Assembly (NCBI GenBank): GCA_964464495.1
Contig: CAYXGI010000002.1
Coordinates: forward strand, 10,558-74,557
Reading direction: 5' to 3'
Source of the DNA: an uncultured Phycisphaerales bacterium
Lineage (GTDB): Bacteria > Planctomycetota > B15-G4 > CAYZWU01
Length of the DNA: 64,000 nucleotides
In this document: positions 2-52,092 of the stretch, piece by piece
Numbering within the stretch: position 1 is the first letter of the stretch
Layout: the number at the start of each line of letters is the position of its first letter
Program-made: the position numbers and the translations under genes
Notes under the pieces: model-generated
Seen by the model: the letters and a program-made list of their open reading frames with translations, nothing else
Database searches by the model: none
Told to the model about the DNA's origin: nothing

Positions 2-1210
2 CCGGTCTGGAACAAGCGTGAGGGAGCACAATCGGGCCCCCTCGGAATCGTCGCGGGCGGACCGTCCCTGGCCCATTTGCGGGACATCTTGAAGGAACGG
101 GCTCTGGAACTCCCGCTGCTGGCGGTGGGAATGAGTTATCCTCTCGATCATGGCCTGCTCGACGAATTCGCCCGCTCCTACGACCGTGTACTGGTTCTCG
201 AGGAACCCGAAGACGCGGTCGAGAGCCAGTTCACCGACCGGAGCGACCTTCTCGGACGTCGGTCGGGCCACGTGCCATCAGCAGGAGAAATAACACCTGA
301 GAAGGTGGAATCCATTCTCGATCGCGCCCTCAAGGAAACGGGTCTTTCTGCAGCAATCCCAGGCAAGGACGATGGCGCGCTGGGCGACCTGGAAGCGGCG
401 ATAGAAAATCTCTCCCTCTCACCACGGCGGCCGACGCTCTGCGCTGGATGCCCCCACCGCGCATCGTTCTTCGCGATCCGCAAGGCGATCCCGCGCGCCA
501 TCTACACGTCGGATATCGGGTGCTACACCCTCGGAATAAACCTGCGCGCCGTCGACACCTGCGTCGACATGGGCGCCGCGGTGAGCATGGCGGCCGGCTT
601 TTCCCAGGCCTATCGGCAGGATGATGAAAAGAAGACCGTGGTGGCCACCATCGGCGACTCGACCTTCTTTCACTCCGGGCTCTCGGGCCTGCTCTCGTCA
701 GTCTACACCGATGCGCGGTTCATCCTCGTGATCCTCGACAATGCCGTCACGGCCATGACCGGGATGCAGCCCACTCCAGGCACCGGCGTGCTCGCAGACG
801 GCGCAAAGGGCAACGCGATCGCGCTCGAGGACGCGGTGCGGGGAACGACGGTCGAGTTTCTCGAGGTCATCGATCCTTACGATTTCAGCGGCATGAAGCA
901 AACCCTGAAGAAGGCCGAGGAGTATATCCATTCACCCGACGGTGGTGTGGCCGTGATCATCTCCCGCGCACCTTGCCTGATCAACGAGAAGAAGACTCAC
1001 GACCAGTGGGCCGGACAGCGCGTCGATGTGGACGAGACGAAATGCGAGGGATGTGGCTTGTGCGTCAAGGCGTTCGAGTGCCCGGCGCTTGTCCAGGAAG
1101 AGCCAAAGGGACCGGTTCATGTCGATCATTCTCTTTGCGTGAACTGCGCGTCCTGCGTGGTGGCTTGCAAGGAAGAGGCGATCGTTCTCAGAGATAACCG
1201 AGTTTCTTGA
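2..1210 (+). CDS. iorA: Indolepyruvate:ferredoxin oxidoreductase alpha subunit, 5'-truncated by window edge
   Basis: Frame is open from position 2. Contains RRPTLCAGCPHR, SDIGCYTLG, the TPP motif GDSTFFHSG...LDN, AMTGMQP and two C-terminal 4Fe-4S motifs (CEGCGLC..C, CVNCASC..C). Confidence 0.92.
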   Translation, partial: PVWNKREGAQSGPLGIVAGGPSLAHLRDILKERALELPLLAVGMSYPLDHGLLDEFARSYDRVLVLEEPEDAVESQFTDRSDLLGRRSGHVPSAGEITPEKVESILDRALKETGLSAAIPGKDDGALGDLEAAIENLSLSPRRPTLCAGCPHRASFFAIRKAIPRAIYTSDIGCYTLGINLRAVDTCVDMGAAVSMAAGFSQAYRQDDEKKTVVATIGDSTFFHSGLSGLLSSVYTDARFILVILDNAVTAMTGMQPTPGTGVLADGAKGNAIALEDAVRGTTVEFLEVIDPYDFSGMKQTLKKAEEYIHSPDGGVAVIISRAPCLINEKKTHDQWAGQRVDVDETKCEGCGLCVKAFECPALVQEEPKGPVHVDHSLCVNCASCVVACKEEAIVLRDNRVS

Positions 1211-1706
1211 GAGCGGCCTTTTCCTCGTCGGTCTCGGCGCGCTTGATGAGGTTTTCCTTGTAGTTGTCGAATTTGGTACCGACATCGGGGTACTTTGCTT
1301 TGGCGAACCCTATGATATCCGTCATGATCAGCACGGGAGCATTGGCTCTATCCATTTCATTGGTCACAGCGAGTGCGTGTTTGTACGAATTCGGTTTGGC
1401 CATCTCGTCGGCGAAGTCCTTCTCCAGTGCAAGAAAGCTAACCTTGGCTTCCTCGTGGAGTCCGAGTTGAACCTGGCACTTGACCGACTCTAGAGCAGCC
1501 TTGAATCGCTTGTCCTGGGCAACCTCGCCATCTCCCTTCCAGTCGAGCAGTTCCTGGTATAGCTTGAACGCTTCTTCGTAGTCTTGGGCCGCCATGGCCT
1601 TGTCCGCGGCTTTTTCCTGTTCGGCCGGGGTCGAGGCGCCGTTGCAGGCCGCGAAAAGGAGAAGGGACAGCAATGAGATCACGAGGGCGGTATTTTTGAG
1701 AATCAT
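1188..1706 (-). CDS. Predicted lipoprotein, TPR-like helical, C-terminal LKKLGYL tail
   Basis: ATG at 1706 gives a signal peptide with lipobox LFAA-C; helical TPR-like segment (QDYEEAFKLYQELL); 23-nt tail-to-tail overlap with iorA. Confidence 0.75.
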   Translation of the reverse strand: MILKNTALVISLLSLLLFAACNGASTPAEQEKAADKAMAAQDYEEAFKLYQELLDWKGDGEVAQDKRFKAALESVKCQVQLGLHEEAKVSFLALEKDFADEMAKPNSYKHALAVTNEMDRANAPVLIMTDIIGFAKAKYPDVGTKFDNYKENLIKRAETDEEKAALKKLGYL

Positions 1707-16823: not shown

Positions 16824-18308
16824 CTATTGACCAGAGAAGCGGCGTCGGATCCGCTCGAGGAGAATCAACGATTTCTCACGGTGAGGATCCGCTTCCAGAA
16901 CATGCGTCAGATATAGGGCGGCTTTTTCCAGGTCATCGGCCACAAAAAAATAATAGGCTCCGAGATTCTCGCACGCATCGAGATTGCCATCGATGGAATA
17001 AGCTTGTTTGAGCAATTCGAGCGCTTTCCGGGTGCGTCCCGTACCCATCATGTGGAGCGCACGGTCATTGAGCACCTGGGAATCGCGTGGAGAGGTTTCG
17101 AGTATGAGTTCGTAGGCTCGATCAGCCTCCTCGATACGACCGCACTGGGCCAGGGCGAGGGCCCGGTTGGCAGCCAGAATCGAGTCGAATGGCAGGATAG
17201 GAAGCAAAGAGTCGTAGATCTCGATCGCTTCCTCGTAAAGTCCGGCGGCGGCCTTCGTGAAGGCCAGAACCCTCAATCGGTCGAGAGAAAGCTCGAAATA
17301 GCGCCCCTCCTTTTTCAGCTCCGTCCTGTAACTGACCACGGCATCGTCGAAGAGACGCTGTTTTTCGCGGAGCAGCCCTTCAAAATAGTGGGCCCCGTCG
17401 AAGGCGACATCGATCTCCAGAATCTCGGCGATGTGACGGCTCGACGAAGCAACGTCTTCGAGTCGGTATTCGACGACGGCGAGGTAAAAAACAATATCCC
17501 GCCTCTTGGGAGCGACCTCGAGCAGGCTTTGATAGAGCGAAGCAGCCTCGAGATAGCTCTCCCGCGGCTCGAAAACCGAATAAGCCAGCGGGGCGATCTC
17601 GATCCGCAGAGGATCCTTGGCCGCGAGCGCCACCAGCAGACCCGCTGCTTCCGGATAGTCTTCGAGAGCGATGAGCGCCCTGACCTCGCCATGCATGGCG
17701 TCGAGCAGATTCTCGTCTTTTCCGCGCGCATCGCGGAACAGGTCGAGTGCTGTTTCGGGATTCTCGCATCGGAGCTCGATCTCCGCCAGAATGTAGAGCG
17801 GATAGGCTTCGCCGGGATAGGTATTGACCAGAGACCGCGCTTCGCGGCGCGCCCCTGTGAAGTTTCTCAAAAGAAAGAGACTGAACGCCAAGTGGTTGCC
17901 GGCTTCGAGAGAAGAAGGCTGACGATCGAGCGCGATGCGGAACGCATCGGCCGCCTGATAGAGCAGGCTCTGCCGGAAGGTCCCCTCGAATCCGGTCAAT
18001 CCCCGAATCGCGCCCGCCTGTCCCAGATAGACCTTGCCGAGAAGAACCCACGCACCGCCAGACTGATCGAATTCTTCCGTCAGTCCGAGAGCAATGTCCA
18101 TGAGACCTGCGGCAGCGTCGGCGGCGATGAACCTGTCAAAAATCTCGTGAAGCCTTTCCCAGCTCTTCGCTTCGTCGGGCGACGCCCTGAGTTCTTCGAG
18201 GGCTACTTCGAGATCATTTGTCCCGGACGGTTCTTGCCCCCAGGCCCGGTCATGAGCACAAAGGGCGATTAAGAAAAAGATCAACAAGCAGGGACTAAAT
18301 GCCTTCAA
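16824..18308 (-). CDS. Secreted multi-TPR protein
   Basis: TTG at 18308 overlaps the purM stop and yields a signal peptide; many TPR units. The longer ORF-track start lies inside purM. Confidence 0.8.
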   Translation of the reverse strand: MKAFSPCLLIFFLIALCAHDRAWGQEPSGTNDLEVALEELRASPDEAKSWERLHEIFDRFIAADAAAGLMDIALGLTEEFDQSGGAWVLLGKVYLGQAGAIRGLTGFEGTFRQSLLYQAADAFRIALDRQPSSLEAGNHLAFSLFLLRNFTGARREARSLVNTYPGEAYPLYILAEIELRCENPETALDLFRDARGKDENLLDAMHGEVRALIALEDYPEAAGLLVALAAKDPLRIEIAPLAYSVFEPRESYLEAASLYQSLLEVAPKRRDIVFYLAVVEYRLEDVASSSRHIAEILEIDVAFDGAHYFEGLLREKQRLFDDAVVSYRTELKKEGRYFELSLDRLRVLAFTKAAAGLYEEAIEIYDSLLPILPFDSILAANRALALAQCGRIEEADRAYELILETSPRDSQVLNDRALHMMGTGRTRKALELLKQAYSIDGNLDACENLGAYYFFVADDLEKAALYLTHVLEADPHREKSLILLERIRRRFSGQ

Positions 18309-19344
18309 GCTGGACTCCCCCCTCGCCCCTCTCGACTTCACCGATAATGTACGGAGAGTAGCCAAGATCTCCGAGTGTCTTGAGGCACTCTTGCGCGGCC
18401 GATCGGTCGATGACAAATACGAAGCCGATACCCATATTGAAGGTTCTGAATGCTTCCTTCTTGTCGAGTTGGGCCAGCGCCACGACCAGCCGAAAGATTC
18501 CAGGAACATTCCACGATCCGATATCGATCCTCACGGAGAATCCCTCGGGGAGTGCGCGCGGTATGTTGTCTATGAAACCGCCTCCCGTGATATGAGCCAT
18601 CGCCTTCACACAGCCCATCTCCTTCATAGCGTTGACAGCGCTGAGGTAACTCATGTGAGGTTCGAGCAACTCGTCTCCGAGGGGACGTCCCAATTCGGGA
18701 GGCGCCGAGGAGAGGTCGTGCTTCTTCATCTCGAAGAAGACCTTTCTCACCAGCGAATAGCCGTTGGTATGCAATCCGGAAGACGCGAGACCGACGAGGA
18801 GATCGCCGTTCTTGACCGACGAACCGTCGATAATCTTATCGCGATCGACGATTCCCACGATAAAGCCGGCAAGGTCGTACTCTCCCTCGGCGTAAAAATC
18901 GGGCATCTCGGCGGTTTCTCCGCCGATGAGAGCGATCTTGTTCTGCGCGCAGGCATTGGCGAGACCGTCGATGATCGATTGAAAAACCTCGGTTTCGAGC
19001 TTTCCCACGGCCAGATAGTCGAGGAAAAAGAGGGGCTGGGCGCCCTGCACGATAATATCGTTGACGCAGTGGTTGACGATGTCCATGCCGACCGTGTTGT
19101 GGCGTCCGGTCATGAAGGCGATCTTGAGCTTCGTCCCCACCCCGTCGGCGCTGGCCACAAGAACCGGCGCTTGACCGCCCAGTCCGTCGATGCTGTAGAG
19201 AGTCCCGAAATTCTTGATGTGAGAGAGGACGCGGTCGTTGAATGTCGAGGAGAGCTTCTCCTTGACCGCACGCAGGGATCGGGTGGCCTTGTCAATGTCA
19301 ACTCCGGCATCTTCGTAGGTCACCTTTCGCTGTTCCTGTTCCAT
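18295..19344 (-). CDS. purM: Phosphoribosylformylglycinamidine cyclo-ligase
   Basis: TYEDAGVDI, SADGVGTKL, PLFFLDY, GGETAEMP, SSGLHTNGYSLVRK, FNMGIG. Confidence 0.97.
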   Translation of the reverse strand: MEQEQRKVTYEDAGVDIDKATRSLRAVKEKLSSTFNDRVLSHIKNFGTLYSIDGLGGQAPVLVASADGVGTKLKIAFMTGRHNTVGMDIVNHCVNDIIVQGAQPLFFLDYLAVGKLETEVFQSIIDGLANACAQNKIALIGGETAEMPDFYAEGEYDLAGFIVGIVDRDKIIDGSSVKNGDLLVGLASSGLHTNGYSLVRKVFFEMKKHDLSSAPPELGRPLGDELLEPHMSYLSAVNAMKEMGCVKAMAHITGGGFIDNIPRALPEGFSVRIDIGSWNVPGIFRLVVALAQLDKKEAFRTFNMGIGFVFVIDRSAAQECLKTLGDLGYSPYIIGEVERGEGGVQLEGI

Positions 19345-38927: not shown

Positions 38928-40091
38928 TTATTCCACGTTTCTCAAAGACGTGACGATGTTGAGCCGCGATGCGTTGAAAGCCGGGATCAAACCTCCGGCA
39001 AAACCAACGACCAGAGAAGCGCCGATCCCGAGACCGAGGATGACGGGCCGCATGATGATCGGGATCGACACGCCGCGAAGGGCCAGTTCCTGATTGGAGA
39101 AGGAGATGATCACGAAGGCGGCCACACAGCCGAGTGCTCCTCCGAACAGACTGAGCAAGACCGACTCTGCGAGCACGAGTCTCAAAACGCGGGGCCGTCC
39201 AAATCCCATGGCTCTCAAGATGCCGATCTCCTGCGATCTGTCGTAGGTCGACATGCTGATCGTGTTGGCGATGCAAAGAAAGATGACGAGCGCCGAAAAG
39301 ACGATCACGTACCCCGCGTACTTGAGCATGTCGTCGAGATCGTCGAGAGCCTGATCGAGGGCGACCTGAGCCGGTTCGGTGTGCGTCTTGATCGGAAAGT
39401 CGAGGTTGTCGATCGCGGTGCACACTCTCTCGGCGTCCTCGCGATCGGCGATCTTGACGTAGATCTGGTGGGAAACGCCCCGCGACCCGTCGACGTCCTG
39501 CAAGAAGACCCTGTCCGCCAGGATCACGTTGCGAAACGCTGGATCTCGCGGGGTAAAGGCGCTTGCCATGAAAAGGCTCAGCCCCTCGAAATCGGCCATG
39601 GCGAATTCGCCATCTTCTTTCCAGACGTACTGGTCACTGTATTTGGTGACAATATCGATGCCCAGCAAAGCGCCGTTGCGCTTGGAGCAAAATTTCTCCC
39701 ACGCCCCGGGTTCCAGATCGAACTCGATCATGTCCCTCAGGTCGTCTTTATCGATTCCTGCGATCTTGACCAGACCGCCACCCGACGAGGCTCAGTGATT
39801 CATCTTGAAGAAGATCGGCGCGGCATTGACCACGCCGGGGACTTCACGCTCGATACGGCGCGCCATGTCCTCGTCGCCGGGCATTGAACTCTTGGTCGGT
39901 CAGTAGACGTCTTCCTCGTTGACCACGAGGATCGTGCTCGCGGCGCCGGCGACCATCTGATTGCGGCTGTCGAAGATCGTCGTCAGGTAGGTAACGATGA
40001 AGACCGCCACCCCCACTCCGAAAATCGTCAGCATGGTCCTCACCGGGTTGCGCCACACGTTGCGGATGACGTAACGCCAGAATTTGAACAT
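38928..40091 (-). CDS. MacB/FtsX-like ABC permease with two in-frame TGA codons, candidate double selenoprotein (U64, U100), 387 aa
   Basis: ORF-track pieces 39900..40091 and 38928..39731 are in one frame, interrupted only by TGA at 39900-39902 and 39792-39794. Joined: ..NEEDVY-U-PTKSSMP..FFKMNH-U-ASSGGGLV..; hairpins follow both TGAs. Confidence 0.85.
39760..39778 (-). promoter_or_regulatory. Candidate bacterial SECIS for TGA 39792-39794
   Basis: Minus strand GCGGTCT-GGTCA-AGATCGC: 7-bp stem (one G-U); GG-initiated loop at +21. Confidence 0.7.
39865..39884 (-). promoter_or_regulatory. Candidate bacterial SECIS for TGA 39900-39902
   Basis: Minus strand ATGCCC-GGCGACGA-GGACAT: 5 bp with one mismatch; GG-initiated loop at +22. 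Weak stem. Confidence 0.5.
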
Positions 40092-48849: not shown

Positions 48850-48879
48850 GAGAAAACGGCCTTCACAGGCCGTTTTCTC
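48850..48879. terminator. Hairpin terminator downstream of the DUF4242-like gene
   Basis: GAGAAAACGGCC-TTCACA-GGCCGTTTTCTC perfect 12-bp stem. Confidence 0.75.
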
Positions 48880-48923
48880 TGTTTCTCGCACCCTGCGCGT
48901 AATCGTTTGCGCCCTGCGCGAAT

Positions 48924-49178
48924 TCAGGAAACGAGGGTTTCTGCGGCGTGCTCCTCGACAGCAATGATCCTCTCGTAAGGAGTTCCCACCTTCTCGAACA
49001 GGCCCGCCAGTTCATCCTTTGACGACGCTGTCCAGCAACACATGCCGAATCCTTCTTCCCAGTTCAGGTAGGAGCGTTCGAACGTGGCACCGCTTCCCCT
49101 TGAAGCGTTGACGACGTCGGCTCATCCCTTTTTGAGTTCGGCTTCCGACATGGTCGGCATGGTGATCACAAACTTCAT
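48924..49178 (-). CDS. DUF4242-like small protein with in-frame TGA, candidate selenoprotein (U19), 84 aa; absent from the ORF track
   Basis: GGAGGTG RBS; MKFVITMPTMSEAELKKG-U-ADVVNASRGSGATFERSYLNWEEGFGMCCWTASSKDELAGLFEKVGTPYERIIAVEEHAAETLVS; TGA at 49122-49124; hairpin follows. Confidence 0.75.
49091..49107 (-). promoter_or_regulatory. Candidate bacterial SECIS for TGA 49122-49124
   Basis: Minus strand CGCTTC-AAGGG-GAAGCG: perfect 6-bp stem, loop at +21. The loop starts with A, not G. Confidence 0.55.
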
Positions 49179-49275
49179 AATGCACCTCCGATCTTGAAGA
49201 GAGTGTTACCCCGCGCGTGGCGGAGTCGTGATCCCGGCCCCAACCAGAACCTTTGAGGATCACTTGGTAAGATTA

Positions 49276-49303
49276 CTTATAGTCGGTTCAGTATAAAACT
49301 CAA
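49276..49303 (-). promoter_or_regulatory. Sigma70-like promoter TTGAGT-N16-TATAAG upstream of the DUF4242-like gene
   Basis: Near-consensus hexamers in the AT-rich gap immediately after the yjbQ stop. Confidence 0.4.
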
Positions 49304-49304
49304 G

Positions 49305-49721
49305 CTAATCTCCGATGATTTTGACGAGCACCCGTTTACGGCGCCGACCGTCGAATTCACCGTAGAAGATTCGCTCCCACGTTCCGAAATCGAGTCGCCC
49401 GCCGGTGATGGCCACGACCACATCGCGGCCCATGACGCTCCGCTTGAGATGGGCGTCGGCATTGTCCTCACCCACGTTGTGGGCATAAGACGCCACCGGC
49501 TCGTGGGGGGCGAGATGTTCGAGCCACTTTTCCAGATCCTGGTGCAAGCCGGACTCGTCGTCATTGATGAACACACTCGCCGTGATGTGCATGGCGTTGA
49601 CCAGACAGAGCCCCTCGCGCACACCGCTCTGACGGACGAGGTCTTCGACGTCATCGGTGATGTTGATGAACCCCCGGCGGGACGGCACTTCGAACCAGAG
49701 GTACTCGGTGAGTGATTTCAC
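49305..49721 (-). CDS. YjbQ/UPF0047-family protein (copy 1)
   Basis: [41 protein letters not shown]. Confidence 0.92.
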
Positions 49722-49732
49722 GTCTTTCTCCT

Positions 49733-51694
49733 TCAGTGAGATTCTTCGTCTTTTTGAAAGGCATACTTTTCATCCATGGCGGATCTGAGCAGGGTGATGA
49801 GATCGGGATCCTCCTCAGTGCCGCTTGTCCAGACAGCGTGCGCCTTGACCGACGTTTTCAGGCATTCGATGGAAGGCGCATAGAATCCTCTCGGTTGCAC
49901 CACGATCGCTCCCGCACCTCCGGAAAAACAGTCGGCCCAGCCGCCTATCCCCGACAAACCGGCGACGAAGGAAATCTCGGGATCGATGAGAGCGGCGTAG
50001 AGAGCGGCCTGTGCGGCGCACGGACCACGACCGATCACTCCTACCACGGGCACGTGGGCTCCCACCACGGGTACATGGCGTTTCAAAATGGCCGCTGCGC
50101 GAGCAACGTCCCATCCCTGGGCAAAGGGAACCGCCGTGCCGAGGTAGGCCATGAGCCGCCCATCTATCTTCTCGAACTCCCCTGTTCCGCGCACGTCGAT
50201 GGCGAGGCACTCGATGCCGGCGGCGAGAAGCGCGTCGACCGGCATCGATCGCATCGCGTCATGCTTGCCTCCATCAGAGATGAGCACGACAGCGCCGAGC
50301 GTCTCTCCGGGAGGAAGTCTCACGATTCCCGGGATCGTCAAGCCCGGTTCCGATTCGAAACAGAGCGCCTCGCCGGACTCTTCCAACGGGGAGCGCACTA
50401 TCTTCGAGGGATCGATCTCCCCGTCGGGAAGACCGCCATTGAGAGCAACGACAGCGTCAAAGAAGAGTTCTCCTTCCGAACAGCTCTGCGCCGCCGCGAT
50501 CTGAGCCATGGTAAGAAGCCGATCGGGCGGTTCGGGAAGACAGAGGTACTCGCGCGCGTCGACGGACGCTGTGGCGATCTCCCCCTCGGGAACAGGCTCC
50601 CCAACGCCAACGCCCTTGAGGTGTTTGTTGAAAAATCCCAGCGCCGCCTCGCGCATGGCGCGGTTGTAGTCATGGCCGCTTTCGAAGATTTGCCAGCGCG
50701 CGTTATGCCTCGCATTGAAGAGAGACCAGATCTTTTCAATCTTTTCTCCGGTCCGCCGCGTACCGTCAGCCGGAAACTCCGGATCGTTGCTCGCGCCAAT
50801 GACGAACAATGGTGCCGGAGCACGGATCGCCAGGACGTCGGAACGGTCACCGACCTGGAGGACGCCGGGAACATGATTGCACGCACAGCCATTGTGGGGA
50901 TTCACTTCCATACTGGTGGCATAGCAGACCGGCACGGCACAGGTGAATCGCTCGTCGGCGGCGAAAGCGTAGAGCGTGGCGAGCCCACCGCCCGAAGCCC
51001 CGGTGAGGCCCACACGGGAGAGATCCGCCTCGGGCCGCGTGGCGAGATAGTCGAGGCCGCGCATCAGATCCCAGACATAGACGGTCGTGGCGTTCGTTGC
51101 GCCCTGGATGAGGGCGAAGTCGAAGTGACTTCCCGCCCATCGCCGTTCGATGAGCGCATCTCGTTCGAAGCTCTCTCCCGGTGAATCGACGACGAGGACC
51201 ACGTATCCGGCACGAGCCTGGGCGATGGCGCGCTTCTGAACACGCGGTTCCATCTTCTTGTCGCGCCAGTGACCGTGCGGATTGACAATGACAGGAAGCG
51301 GATGCTCGACGGCGGCCAGAGGCAAATAAAGATGGGCGGTGACCGGAAATCGGGGCCGGCTCTCGAAGACGATTTTCTCCACACGATAGCCATCGCCTTG
51401 GATCACACCGGTCACCCGGGCGTTGAGGGGAGTTCGATCCGGGAGCGGATCGAGACCGAGGCAGCGCATCAATTGCTTCTTCTGCGCCGGCCGTTGCCTC
51501 TCAAACGCCTCCCGTGTCGACGGAATGGGACGAGCCGCGGCTGCCTTGGCTTTCTTCTCGAGGAAGGACTGTAACATGGCTGGTGCCTTGCCGCCGAGCA
51601 CGGTGACGTCCGTCTCAGCCTGGCCCGCCTCGTCTTCCGTCGTGATCGGGCCTCCGGCAAAGAGAAGCAGCAAGAGCAGCGCGCCCGCTTTCAT
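49733..51694 (-). CDS. Secreted acetylxylan-esterase/dienelactone-hydrolase-like alpha/beta hydrolase
   Basis: [35 protein letters not shown] nucleophile elbow, GHDYN; second degenerate hydrolase domain. Confidence 0.88.
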
Positions 51695-52092
51695 CCCGCC
51701 ACCACCTTGACCAGCACCTTGCGCGTACGGGGCCCGTCAAAATCGCAGAAGTAGACACCCTGCCAGGTGCCGAGCCGCATCCGGCCTTCCTCGACCGGGA
51801 TAACCGCTGTCGCCCCCATGAGGGACGCTTTCACATGGGCGGCACTGTTTCCCTCGGAGTGGGCATACCCCCCCTCCCAGGGAACAATGCGGTCGAGCAC
51901 GTTGATGATGTCGTGCTGAACCGACGGATCGGCATTCTCGTTGATCGTCACGCCCGCCGTGGTGTGCGGCACGTAGACGTAGCACAGACCGCTCTCCACA
52001 CCGCTCGCAGCCACCACCGCGCCGACCTGAGCGCTGATGTCGACAAAATCGGTACGGCCCCCCGTGCGGATCGAAAGACGCTGGGAGATCAT
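51691..52092 (-). CDS. YjbQ/UPF0047-family protein (copy 2)
   Basis: PHTTAGVTINENADPSV, EGNSAAHVKASLMG, LGTWQGVYFCDFDGPR. Confidence 0.93.
   Translation of the reverse strand: MISQRLSIRTGGRTDFVDISAQVGAVVAASGVESGLCYVYVPHTTAGVTINENADPSVQHDIINVLDRIVPWEGGYAHSEGNSAAHVKASLMGATAVIPVEEGRMRLGTWQGVYFCDFDGPRTRKVLVKVVAG

Follow-up and report, generated by a model that had tools for sequence, protein, structure and literature searches.

An unannotated gene with an in-frame TGA

The subject of this report is a candidate selenoprotein gene of 84 codons that lies in an annotation gap on the minus strand (49178..48924) of a 64-kb stretch of DNA from an uncultured Phycisphaerales bacterium, the whole of which is called the window below. 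The gene opens with an ATG, continues for 18 codons (the start included) to a TGA, and then runs in the same frame through 65 codons to a second TGA; its read-through product consists of MKFVITMPTMSEAELKKG, the residue specified by the first TGA, and ADVVNASRGSGATFERSYLNWEEGFGMCCWTASSKDELAGLFEKVGTPYERIIAVEEHAAETLVS, the latter part starting with ADVV and ending with TLVS. An earlier reading of the bare letters (the sequence-only reading) had described this layout, with a ribosome-binding site (RBS) before the ATG, in a gap filled only with spurious open reading frames (ORFs), and both the translation and the ORF list agree with it: the frames listed at the locus are short or overlapping (39, 50 and 83 residues), the 39-residue one beginning at Met46. 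The G+C content at third codon positions (GC3) is 0.72 upstream and 0.68 downstream of the TGA, like that of the genes of the window.

Conservation of the TGA codon in relatives

A phmmer search with the 65 residues after the TGA as query, run exhaustively against 1.84 billion representatives, returned 16 proteins, 14 of which are gene calls of 48-55 residues that start from an internal Met. Another match, P0025 (79 residues), has W at the site proposed for selenocysteine (Sec), where the codon is TGA in genetic code 11, and the 1591-residue match P0019 was discarded as a WD40-repeat false positive. No intact relative with a codon other than TGA was found in this search, only truncated calls or W calls in code 4. 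A profile search brought 110 clusters (at 90% identity), nearly all truncated, so that the family, with its ~110 clusters, extends over Planctomycetota, Fermentibacterota, WOR-3 and other lineages. The Sec site is covered by 25 full-length entries, of which 23 have W, one R (CGA, P0037) and one C (P0049, 80 residues, with TGT at the aligned codon on three contigs); the W entries are probably code-4 calls of TGA, as shown on the DNA for P0025 and its neighbour. Public gene calls for the family are fragments of 46-63 residues, named “DUF4242 domain-containing protein” (50 residues), “nickel-binding protein” or “hypothetical protein”.

Readable DNA was available for 17 distinct genes, namely those of the window, L004, L001, L006, L007, L011/12, L013, L014, L015 (two tandem paralogues), L017, L019, L020, L021, L022, L023 and L024/25. 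The relatives come from uncultured Phycisphaerales (L004, 92%; L001/L005, 70%), Planctomycetaceae (L006, 62%), metagenomes (L007-L014, L017, L020, L022, L023), Ca. Fermentibacterales (L021) and other metagenome-assembled genomes (L019, L024/L025). All 17 genes have TGA at the same codon, and this column is preceded by a conserved N-terminal segment that mostly follows an RBS; homologues thus span the TGA, and one of them, P0049, has the Cys at position 19 that the sequence-only reading had proposed to look for. The recurrence of the same TGA, the same frame and the same hairpin (see below) in every relative is more than chance. The tandem paralogues of L015 (902..1141 and 1194..1439), from an organism of lower GC, each have their own RBS and in-frame TGA as well as a hairpin, GCUUCC-GUA-GGAAG(C/U), and public calls render their TGA codons as W (code 4).

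Coding on both sides of the TGA

Over the 17 codons that follow the ATG, the eleven pairs of sequences compared differ at a proportion of nonsynonymous sites (pN) of 0.11-0.45 against 0.53-1.06 at synonymous sites (pS), with pairs as far apart as pN 0.11 versus pS 1.06 or pN 0.20 versus pS 1.00, and the part 3' of the TGA follows the same pattern (pN 0.16-0.38, pS 0.54-0.91). The 18 upstream codons are under purifying selection. A purine-rich Shine-Dalgarno sequence stands before the same ATG or GTG in 15 of the 16 relatives with readable upstream DNA, the remaining one, L006, having only GGAG 8 nucleotides (nt) upstream. Downstream of the TGA, the first possible start (ATG, GTG or TTG) in the window is Met46, and since no start lies between the two, a start of its own for the downstream part, which would speak against read-through, is not seen; initiation at Met46 would lose the segment FERSYLNWEEG, which is invariant among the four closest sequences and is the most conserved block. 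TGA is also the commonest ordinary stop codon of the window (25 TGA, 15 TAG and 5 TAA in 45 ORFs), and the genetic code is therefore not reassigned.

These data bear on the possibility that the TGA is not passed at all, the locus being either the remnant of a DUF4242 gene or an upstream ORF of 18 codons with a C-terminal fragment translated separately behind it. Public gene callers do annotate only the downstream 46-63 residues, such as the 50-residue “DUF4242 domain-containing protein”. Yet a Met46 start would give a 39-residue product devoid of helix 1 and strand 2, the stretch from the TGA to Met46 is the best-conserved part of the protein, the upstream codons are both selected and equipped with an RBS, and 17 loci spread over several phyla would not all retain this single TGA if they were pseudogenes. 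This explanation is largely refuted, and we regard it as the least probable of those considered.

A SECIS-like hairpin downstream of the TGA

The hairpin described by the sequence-only reading, a perfect 6-bp stem with its loop at +21, was recovered as such, and its conservation was borne out, in that all members folded have a hairpin at the same offset. In the window its core stem pairs CGCUUC with GAAGCG and is extended by weaker lower pairs (49110..49108 with 49090..49088); 20 nt separate the UGA from the loop, which begins at nt 21, and the 23-nt core folds at -8.5 kcal/mol, a 51-nt segment at -15.5 kcal/mol. The model for bacterial selenocysteine insertion sequences (bSECIS) calls for an apical loop of 3-9 nt, an upper stem of 4-16 bp, a distance of 16-37 nt from the UGA and a minimum free energy <= -7.5 kcal/mol, and also for a G at the first or second position of the loop (PMC13188914). 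With a loop of 5 nt, a stem of 6 bp, a spacing of 20 nt and the energies given, the hairpin of the window lies within the first four of these limits; the loop G is taken up below. Comparison of the window with Rfam yielded no match at gathering thresholds, and the surroundings of the gene only noise.

Codons in the hairpin arms are frozen at synonymous sites (GCT in 13/14, GGA in 13/14 and AGC in 13/14), compared with a top codon that reaches only 33-54% at eleven other conserved columns of four- or six-fold degeneracy, and GCT, GGA and AGC are minority codons in the source genome (13%, 22% and 24%, respectively). In L019, where the peptide differs and is longer by a three-residue insertion, a hairpin of -23.3 kcal/mol with a GGUC apical loop, as in Escherichia coli fdhF, still occupies the same place. 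The frozen arm codons and the replacement hairpin of L019 argue for selection on the RNA.

Probable decoding of UGA19 as selenocysteine

Taken as a whole, the locus is best explained as a functional, unannotated gene for an 84-residue cytoplasmic selenoprotein, a reading that we give a probability of about 0.87, and comparison of the sequences indicates that UGA19 of the 84-codon gene is almost certainly read as selenocysteine. Translation would start at ATG 49178 behind the strong RBS, at UGA19 the hairpin 15-37 nt further on would direct SelB and Sec-tRNA(Sec) to insert Sec, and synthesis would end at the second TGA. The TGT of P0049 supplies the Cys form at the Sec position that is the classical Sec/Cys criterion, albeit a rare one (1 of 25 full-length entries). 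The family gene of L024/L025 (GCA_036382775.1) begins 10 nt behind the stop codon of a selenophosphate synthetase gene, selD (L024 3863..4897; 301.7 bits on TIGR00476, cut-off 125). This selD itself has an in-frame TGA in the motif CAG-U-ASK (MPKGILSFIKCAG-TGA-ASKMS...), and the gene caller cut it to 324 residues; the arrangement suggests that the family gene and the Sec-containing selD form an operon. Full sets of Sec genes have been reported for several Planctomycetes (PMC4807772).

Several observations weigh against this interpretation. Neither selA, selB nor selD was found in the 64-kb window (~40 ORFs scanned), which also holds no tRNA gene, tRNA-Sec included; the 15 loci examined likewise hold none. 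The only AIRS-family gene of the window, an AIRS/AIRS_C gene at 18298..19344, was considered as selD and is purM (389 bits). The first two loop positions lack G in the window, L004, L006, L007, L011 and L023 (loops AAGGG or ACGGG); counting the A.G closing mismatch as a pair gives the loop AGG in these members, and G is in place in the others (loops AGG, GUA, GGA, AGA and GGUC), those with AGG, GUA or GGA having the loop closed by a C-G pair instead of A.G. Covariation in the stem is not statistically significant, because the stem sequence is almost invariant, and the 71-nt region is no more stable than its shuffles (z -1.18). The variants with Cys (TGT) or Arg (CGA) at the site retain the hairpin, whose conservation may thus stem in part from the A-S-x-G-S peptide or from recent conversion. 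Finally, genomic contexts vary by lineage (YjbQ/AIM24 in the window; selD, ArsM or the S-adenosylmethionine [SAM] cycle in others).

Some of these points would equally suit passage of UGA19 without Sec, by near-cognate read-through as Trp, Cys or Arg or by local recoding, with the hairpin as a read-through stimulator: Sec machinery was not found in the window, its loop breaks one bSECIS rule, and CGA (Arg) and TGT (Cys) occur at the site. Against this, a Sec site would be expected to have a Cys variant, one member apparently shares a transcript with a Sec-containing selD, the distance and size of the hairpin fit a bSECIS element, and all 17 loci, from distant lineages, have kept TGA, even though a sense codon would cost far less if Trp, Arg or Cys were enough at this position. 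Read-through of this sort is, in our estimation, very improbable, and decoding as Sec remains the preferred reading.

A generic scan of the window for TGA codons flanked by open, GC3-rich frames, otherwise noisy and uninformative, picked out an FtsX/MacB-type ABC permease gene at 38928..40091 (-), whose single 387-codon frame is broken by two in-frame TGA codons (39902..39900, in EEDVY-TGA-PTKS, and 39794..39792, in FFKMNH-TGA-ASSGGG). It is accompanied by genes for an ABC ATPase, a paralogous permease and HlyD- and OEP-type proteins. The second TGA is followed, from 13 nt downstream, by a bSECIS-like 7-bp hairpin with loop GGUCA, and the first has no convincing hairpin. Against NCBIfam, the permease gave generic FtsX/MacB matches only, not SaoP; an “ABC transporter SalX-SalY” is listed among planctomycete selenoprotein candidates (PMC4807772 Table S9). 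By its sequence, this permease could be a second selenoprotein, and hence a sign of Sec decoding in the organism, or a pseudogene.

Protein family and predicted fold

With U read as C, the protein matches PF14026 (DUF4242) at 31.6 bits against a gathering cut-off of 28.5, residues 11-74 aligning to profile positions 12-76, and the part after the TGA reaches 30.0 bits by itself. In NCBIfam release 20 (E<=10, three family members), only NF033706, the equivalog model for the nickel-binding protein of the SCO4226 family, was matched, weakly, at 13-17 bits against a cut-off of 125 (13.3 for the window protein), and none of the selenoprotein models (GOS_B, GOS_C, DG, DW, DF, CC/Se, Sao, Tso) matched at E<=10. 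An AlphaFold2 (AF2) model of the member P0025, built from a 26-sequence alignment, has a mean confidence (pLDDT) of 96.3 and a beta-alpha-beta-beta-alpha-beta order of elements (E3-7, H13-27, E33-40, E45-51, H55-65, E71-75), with the Sec position midway along helix alpha-1 (13-27) and the CC motif on strand beta-3 (45-51). The best match of this model in the Protein Data Bank (PDB), as found with Foldseek, is SCO4226 (4OI6_A; TM-score 0.81, root-mean-square deviation 2.2 A, E 1.6e-5); a sequence search of the PDB with the family profile returned chance antibody matches only. When the 15-member full-length alignment was compared with SCO4226 by hhalign (the first residue and last four of SCO4226 being entered from the numbering of its paper), residues 7-75 aligned without gaps to 11-79 at a probability of 89%, Sec19 pairing with His23 and Cys47 with the conserved Cys51.

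The resemblance to DUF4242 and SCO4226 that the sequence-only reading had recognised is therefore upheld by a PF14026 score above cut-off and by the fold match of P0025, and by sequence and model the predicted protein is a Sec-containing subfamily of SCO4226-like (DUF4242, PF14026) ferredoxin-fold proteins. Invariant columns of the family are M1, K2, U19, S26, C48, W49, F61 and V74; C47 is nearly so, and at least one of Cys47 and Cys48 is present in every family sequence examined.

Genomic neighbourhoods

In the window and in L001, the gene lies between YjbQ upstream and genes for AIM24/TIGR00266 and a VIT-VWA protein downstream, a neighbourhood that is conserved in Phycisphaerales. The window has two YjbQ/UPF0047 paralogues, at 49305..49721 (-), directly upstream of the selenoprotein gene, and at 51691..52092 (-); in L001, too, two YjbQ genes precede the family gene, <=3 kb away, and the same AIM24 and VIT-VWA genes follow it. 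In L019 (2403..5156), the family gene shares its strand with genes for SAM synthetase and S-adenosylhomocysteine hydrolase, which lie directly upstream and leave a gap of 37 nt before it. Next in L019, on the other strand, comes an arylsulfotransferase gene, and L007 also has one, ~7 kb away. The Cys form (L026 2083..2325, L027 2453..2695) is divergent from genes for an ArsR/SmtB regulator, an arsenite methyltransferase (NF008823, 353.7 bits) and a DsbD-like membrane protein; it has the motif ICIW in place of CCW and retains the hairpin, as GCTTCC-GTG-GGAAGT. Genes for rubrerythrin, AhpC, Fe-superoxide dismutase (Fe-SOD) and ferritin lie within 6 kb of the family gene in L007.

Possible functions of a proposed Sec/Cys centre

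Sec19 shares a helix face with L15, V22 and V23. In SCO4226, Tyr50 and Leu52, which flank Cys51, point into the dimer core (PMC4186839), and Cys51, and with it Cys47 of the family, should therefore face the helices, which makes a joint Sec/Cys centre plausible. By this analogy, we infer that Sec19 and Cys47/48 plausibly form one reactive chalcogen centre, much as the sequence-only reading had supposed for U19 and the Cys pair. Given the recurring selenium, arsenic and SAM neighbours, we lean toward metalloid binding or transfer; the mechanism that we prefer, tentatively and at somewhat less than even odds, is that the centre binds or hands over a soft metalloid. Its cargo would be selenium en route to SelD, or an arsenic-type substrate of SAM-dependent methylation, held via Se-S or Se-X bonds.

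A Sec-decoded protein could instead be a plain thiol/selenol oxidoreductase, in which a Sec19-Cys47 selenenylsulfide would cycle in the reduction of peroxides or disulfides and no metalloid would be carried. The majority of bacterial selenoproteins without a known function are regarded as redox proteins (PMC13188914), a resolving couple usually consists of one Sec together with a conserved Cys pair, and L007 has its oxidative-stress genes close by. These latter, on the other hand, are separated from the family gene by a divergent serine dehydratase gene, and the association is not seen at other loci; the protein has no thioredoxin fold and no UxxC or CxxU motif, its Sec and Cys belong to different secondary-structure elements at a distance of 28 residues, and the genes next to it are selD and, in the case of the Cys form, ArsR and ArsM. 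An oxidoreductase is rather unlikely on this evidence, if nearly as likely as the metalloid function that we favour. Carrying the latter further, the family might consist of almost obligately Sec-containing, small ferredoxin-fold carriers of selenium (or of arsenic-type metalloids) on Sec19/Cys47/Cys48, which would pass their cargo to selenophosphate synthetase or to SAM-dependent metalloid methyltransferases and would be candidates for the in vivo donor of selenium to SelD; the joint claim of carrier and donor is a doubtful one.

Comparison with known systems

SCO4226 of Streptomyces coelicolor (PDB 4OI3, 4OI6) resembles the window protein in size (~80 residues), in its ferredoxin-like fold and in the retained beta-3 Cys, but identity is only ~15% and it has neither Sec nor a CC motif. 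Its nickel ligands, conserved among Streptomyces homologues, are His23, Asp43, Ser46, Glu74 and His76 (PMC4186839), and the window protein has Sec19, Asn39, Glu42, Arg70 and Ile72, respectively, in their place. The label “nickel-binding” should not be transferred, because the ligands are replaced; nickel binding as a function carried over from SCO4226 was rejected on these grounds, and to judge from the sequence it is not expected here.

With genes of the fdhF type, whose SECIS is intragenic (the Zhang and Gladyshev model as given in PMC13188914), the family shares an in-frame UGA and a hairpin within the coding sequence, with 20 nt from UGA to loop, an upper stem of 6-8 bp and a G-containing loop of 3-5 nt. 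It differs in that the window and its closest relatives have the loop A(A/C)GGG, with the first G at position 3, in that the stem is near-invariant and free of compensatory changes, and in the scarcity of Cys homologues (1/25), most selenoprotein families having far more Cys than Sec members.

Several metal-related selenoproteins of the HMA/CopZ kind are included in a 2026 review (PMC13188914). The HMA/CopZ/Atx1-type and CopZ-family 2Fe-2S selenoproteins belong to the same general fold class and are likewise small and cytoplasmic, with Sec or Cys ligands, and Atx1, TM0320 and HMA domains are among the weaker Foldseek matches of the P0025 model. The family nevertheless has no MxCxxC or GxUC at the beta-1/alpha-1 junction, its Sec being mid-helix and its Cys pair on beta-3, and hidden Markov models of the HMA/CopZ-type families did not match the window protein. 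The CC/Se motif family (NF041239) is alike in combining Cys-Cys with Sec in a small uncharacterised protein, but its motif is CxxU, whereas U precedes CC by 28 residues in the window protein, which NF041239 did not match at E<=10.

Features and flanking signals

The features of the locus are collected in Table 1. An own terminator and an own sigma70-like promoter had both been claimed for the gene. A terminator-like hairpin is indeed present, with a stem of 13 bp rather than the 12 first counted; a U-rich stretch follows it, the U-run lying partly within the 3' arm on the minus strand, and the terminator scan reported the palindrome on the plus strand only. Two direct copies of CGCGCAGGG(C/T)GC, 11 nt apart, occupy 48886..48920 (-), between the stop codon and this hairpin. 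As to the promoter, the hexamers (TTGAGT at 49303..49298 and TATAAG at 49281..49276) were picked by eye; L004 and L011, the two closest relatives, share both hexamers and the distance between them but differ in the spacer sequence. A sigma-70 consensus scan reported no site on the minus strand, this one included. Since the last base of the -10 element is G and the match to consensus is weak, TTGAGT-16-TATAAG is only a possible promoter of the 84-codon gene. Between it and the RBS, a 16-nt block, GGTTGGGGCCGGGATC (49230..49245, -), is identical in the window, L004 and L011, where the flanking sequence has diverged or been deleted; judged by this pattern, the block may be an operator or leader element.

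Table 1. Features at the locus of the candidate selenoprotein gene (window coordinates).
Feature	Position	Strand	Basis
Coding sequence of the 84-residue selenoprotein candidate, M1...G18-U19-A20...S84	48924..49178	-	Translation; PF14026 match; orthologues with the same frame and TGA
In-frame UGA, codon 19, proposed Sec codon	49122..49124	-	TGA in 17/17 DNA-verified genes
SECIS-like hairpin; core stem 49107..49102 / 49096..49091, loop AAGGG 49101..49097	49088..49110	-	RNA folding
Cys47-Cys48 codons TGT TGC, CCW motif, strand beta-3	49035..49040	-	Family alignment
Stop codon TGA of the 84-codon gene	48926..48924	-	Translation
Shine-Dalgarno sequence GGAGGTG, 4 nt 5' of ATG 49178	49183..49189	-	Sequence
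Promoter-like TTGAGT-16 nt-TATAAG, right after the YjbQ stop codon; weak	49276..49303	-	By eye
Terminator-like 13-bp hairpin GAGAAAACGGCCT-GTGA-AGGCCGTTTTCTC, between the 84-codon gene and the AIM24/TIGR00266 gene	48850..48879	-	Sequence; palindrome scan

Novelty and significance

The family is absent from the table of 119 prokaryotic selenoprotein families in the 2026 review (PMC13188914) and has no NCBIfam model, in keeping with the sequence-only reading, which knew of no such family in described selenoprotein lists; nor does it figure in the deep-Sep or BSepDB papers or in the planctomycete candidate table. No report linking DUF4242, PF14026 or SCO4226 with selenoproteins was found in the literature searched, subscription journals and database-only annotations being outside its scope. 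On sequence grounds, we classify the candidate as a new selenoprotein family within a known kind of system.

Gene calls and the DUF4242 annotation need correction for this clade, whose members are mis-annotated as fragments. The family would add to the prokaryotic selenoproteome a fold class, the SCO4226-like dimeric ferredoxin fold with Sec mid-helix, and, as its Cys forms are much rarer than its Sec forms, the reverse of the usual situation, it would lend itself to studies of why Sec persists. The 2026 review describes the donor that supplies SelD with selenium physiologically as not resolved (PMC13188914), and the link to selD in one lineage, together with ArsR and ArsM beside the Cys form, would provide a testable lead on the trafficking of selenium and metalloids.

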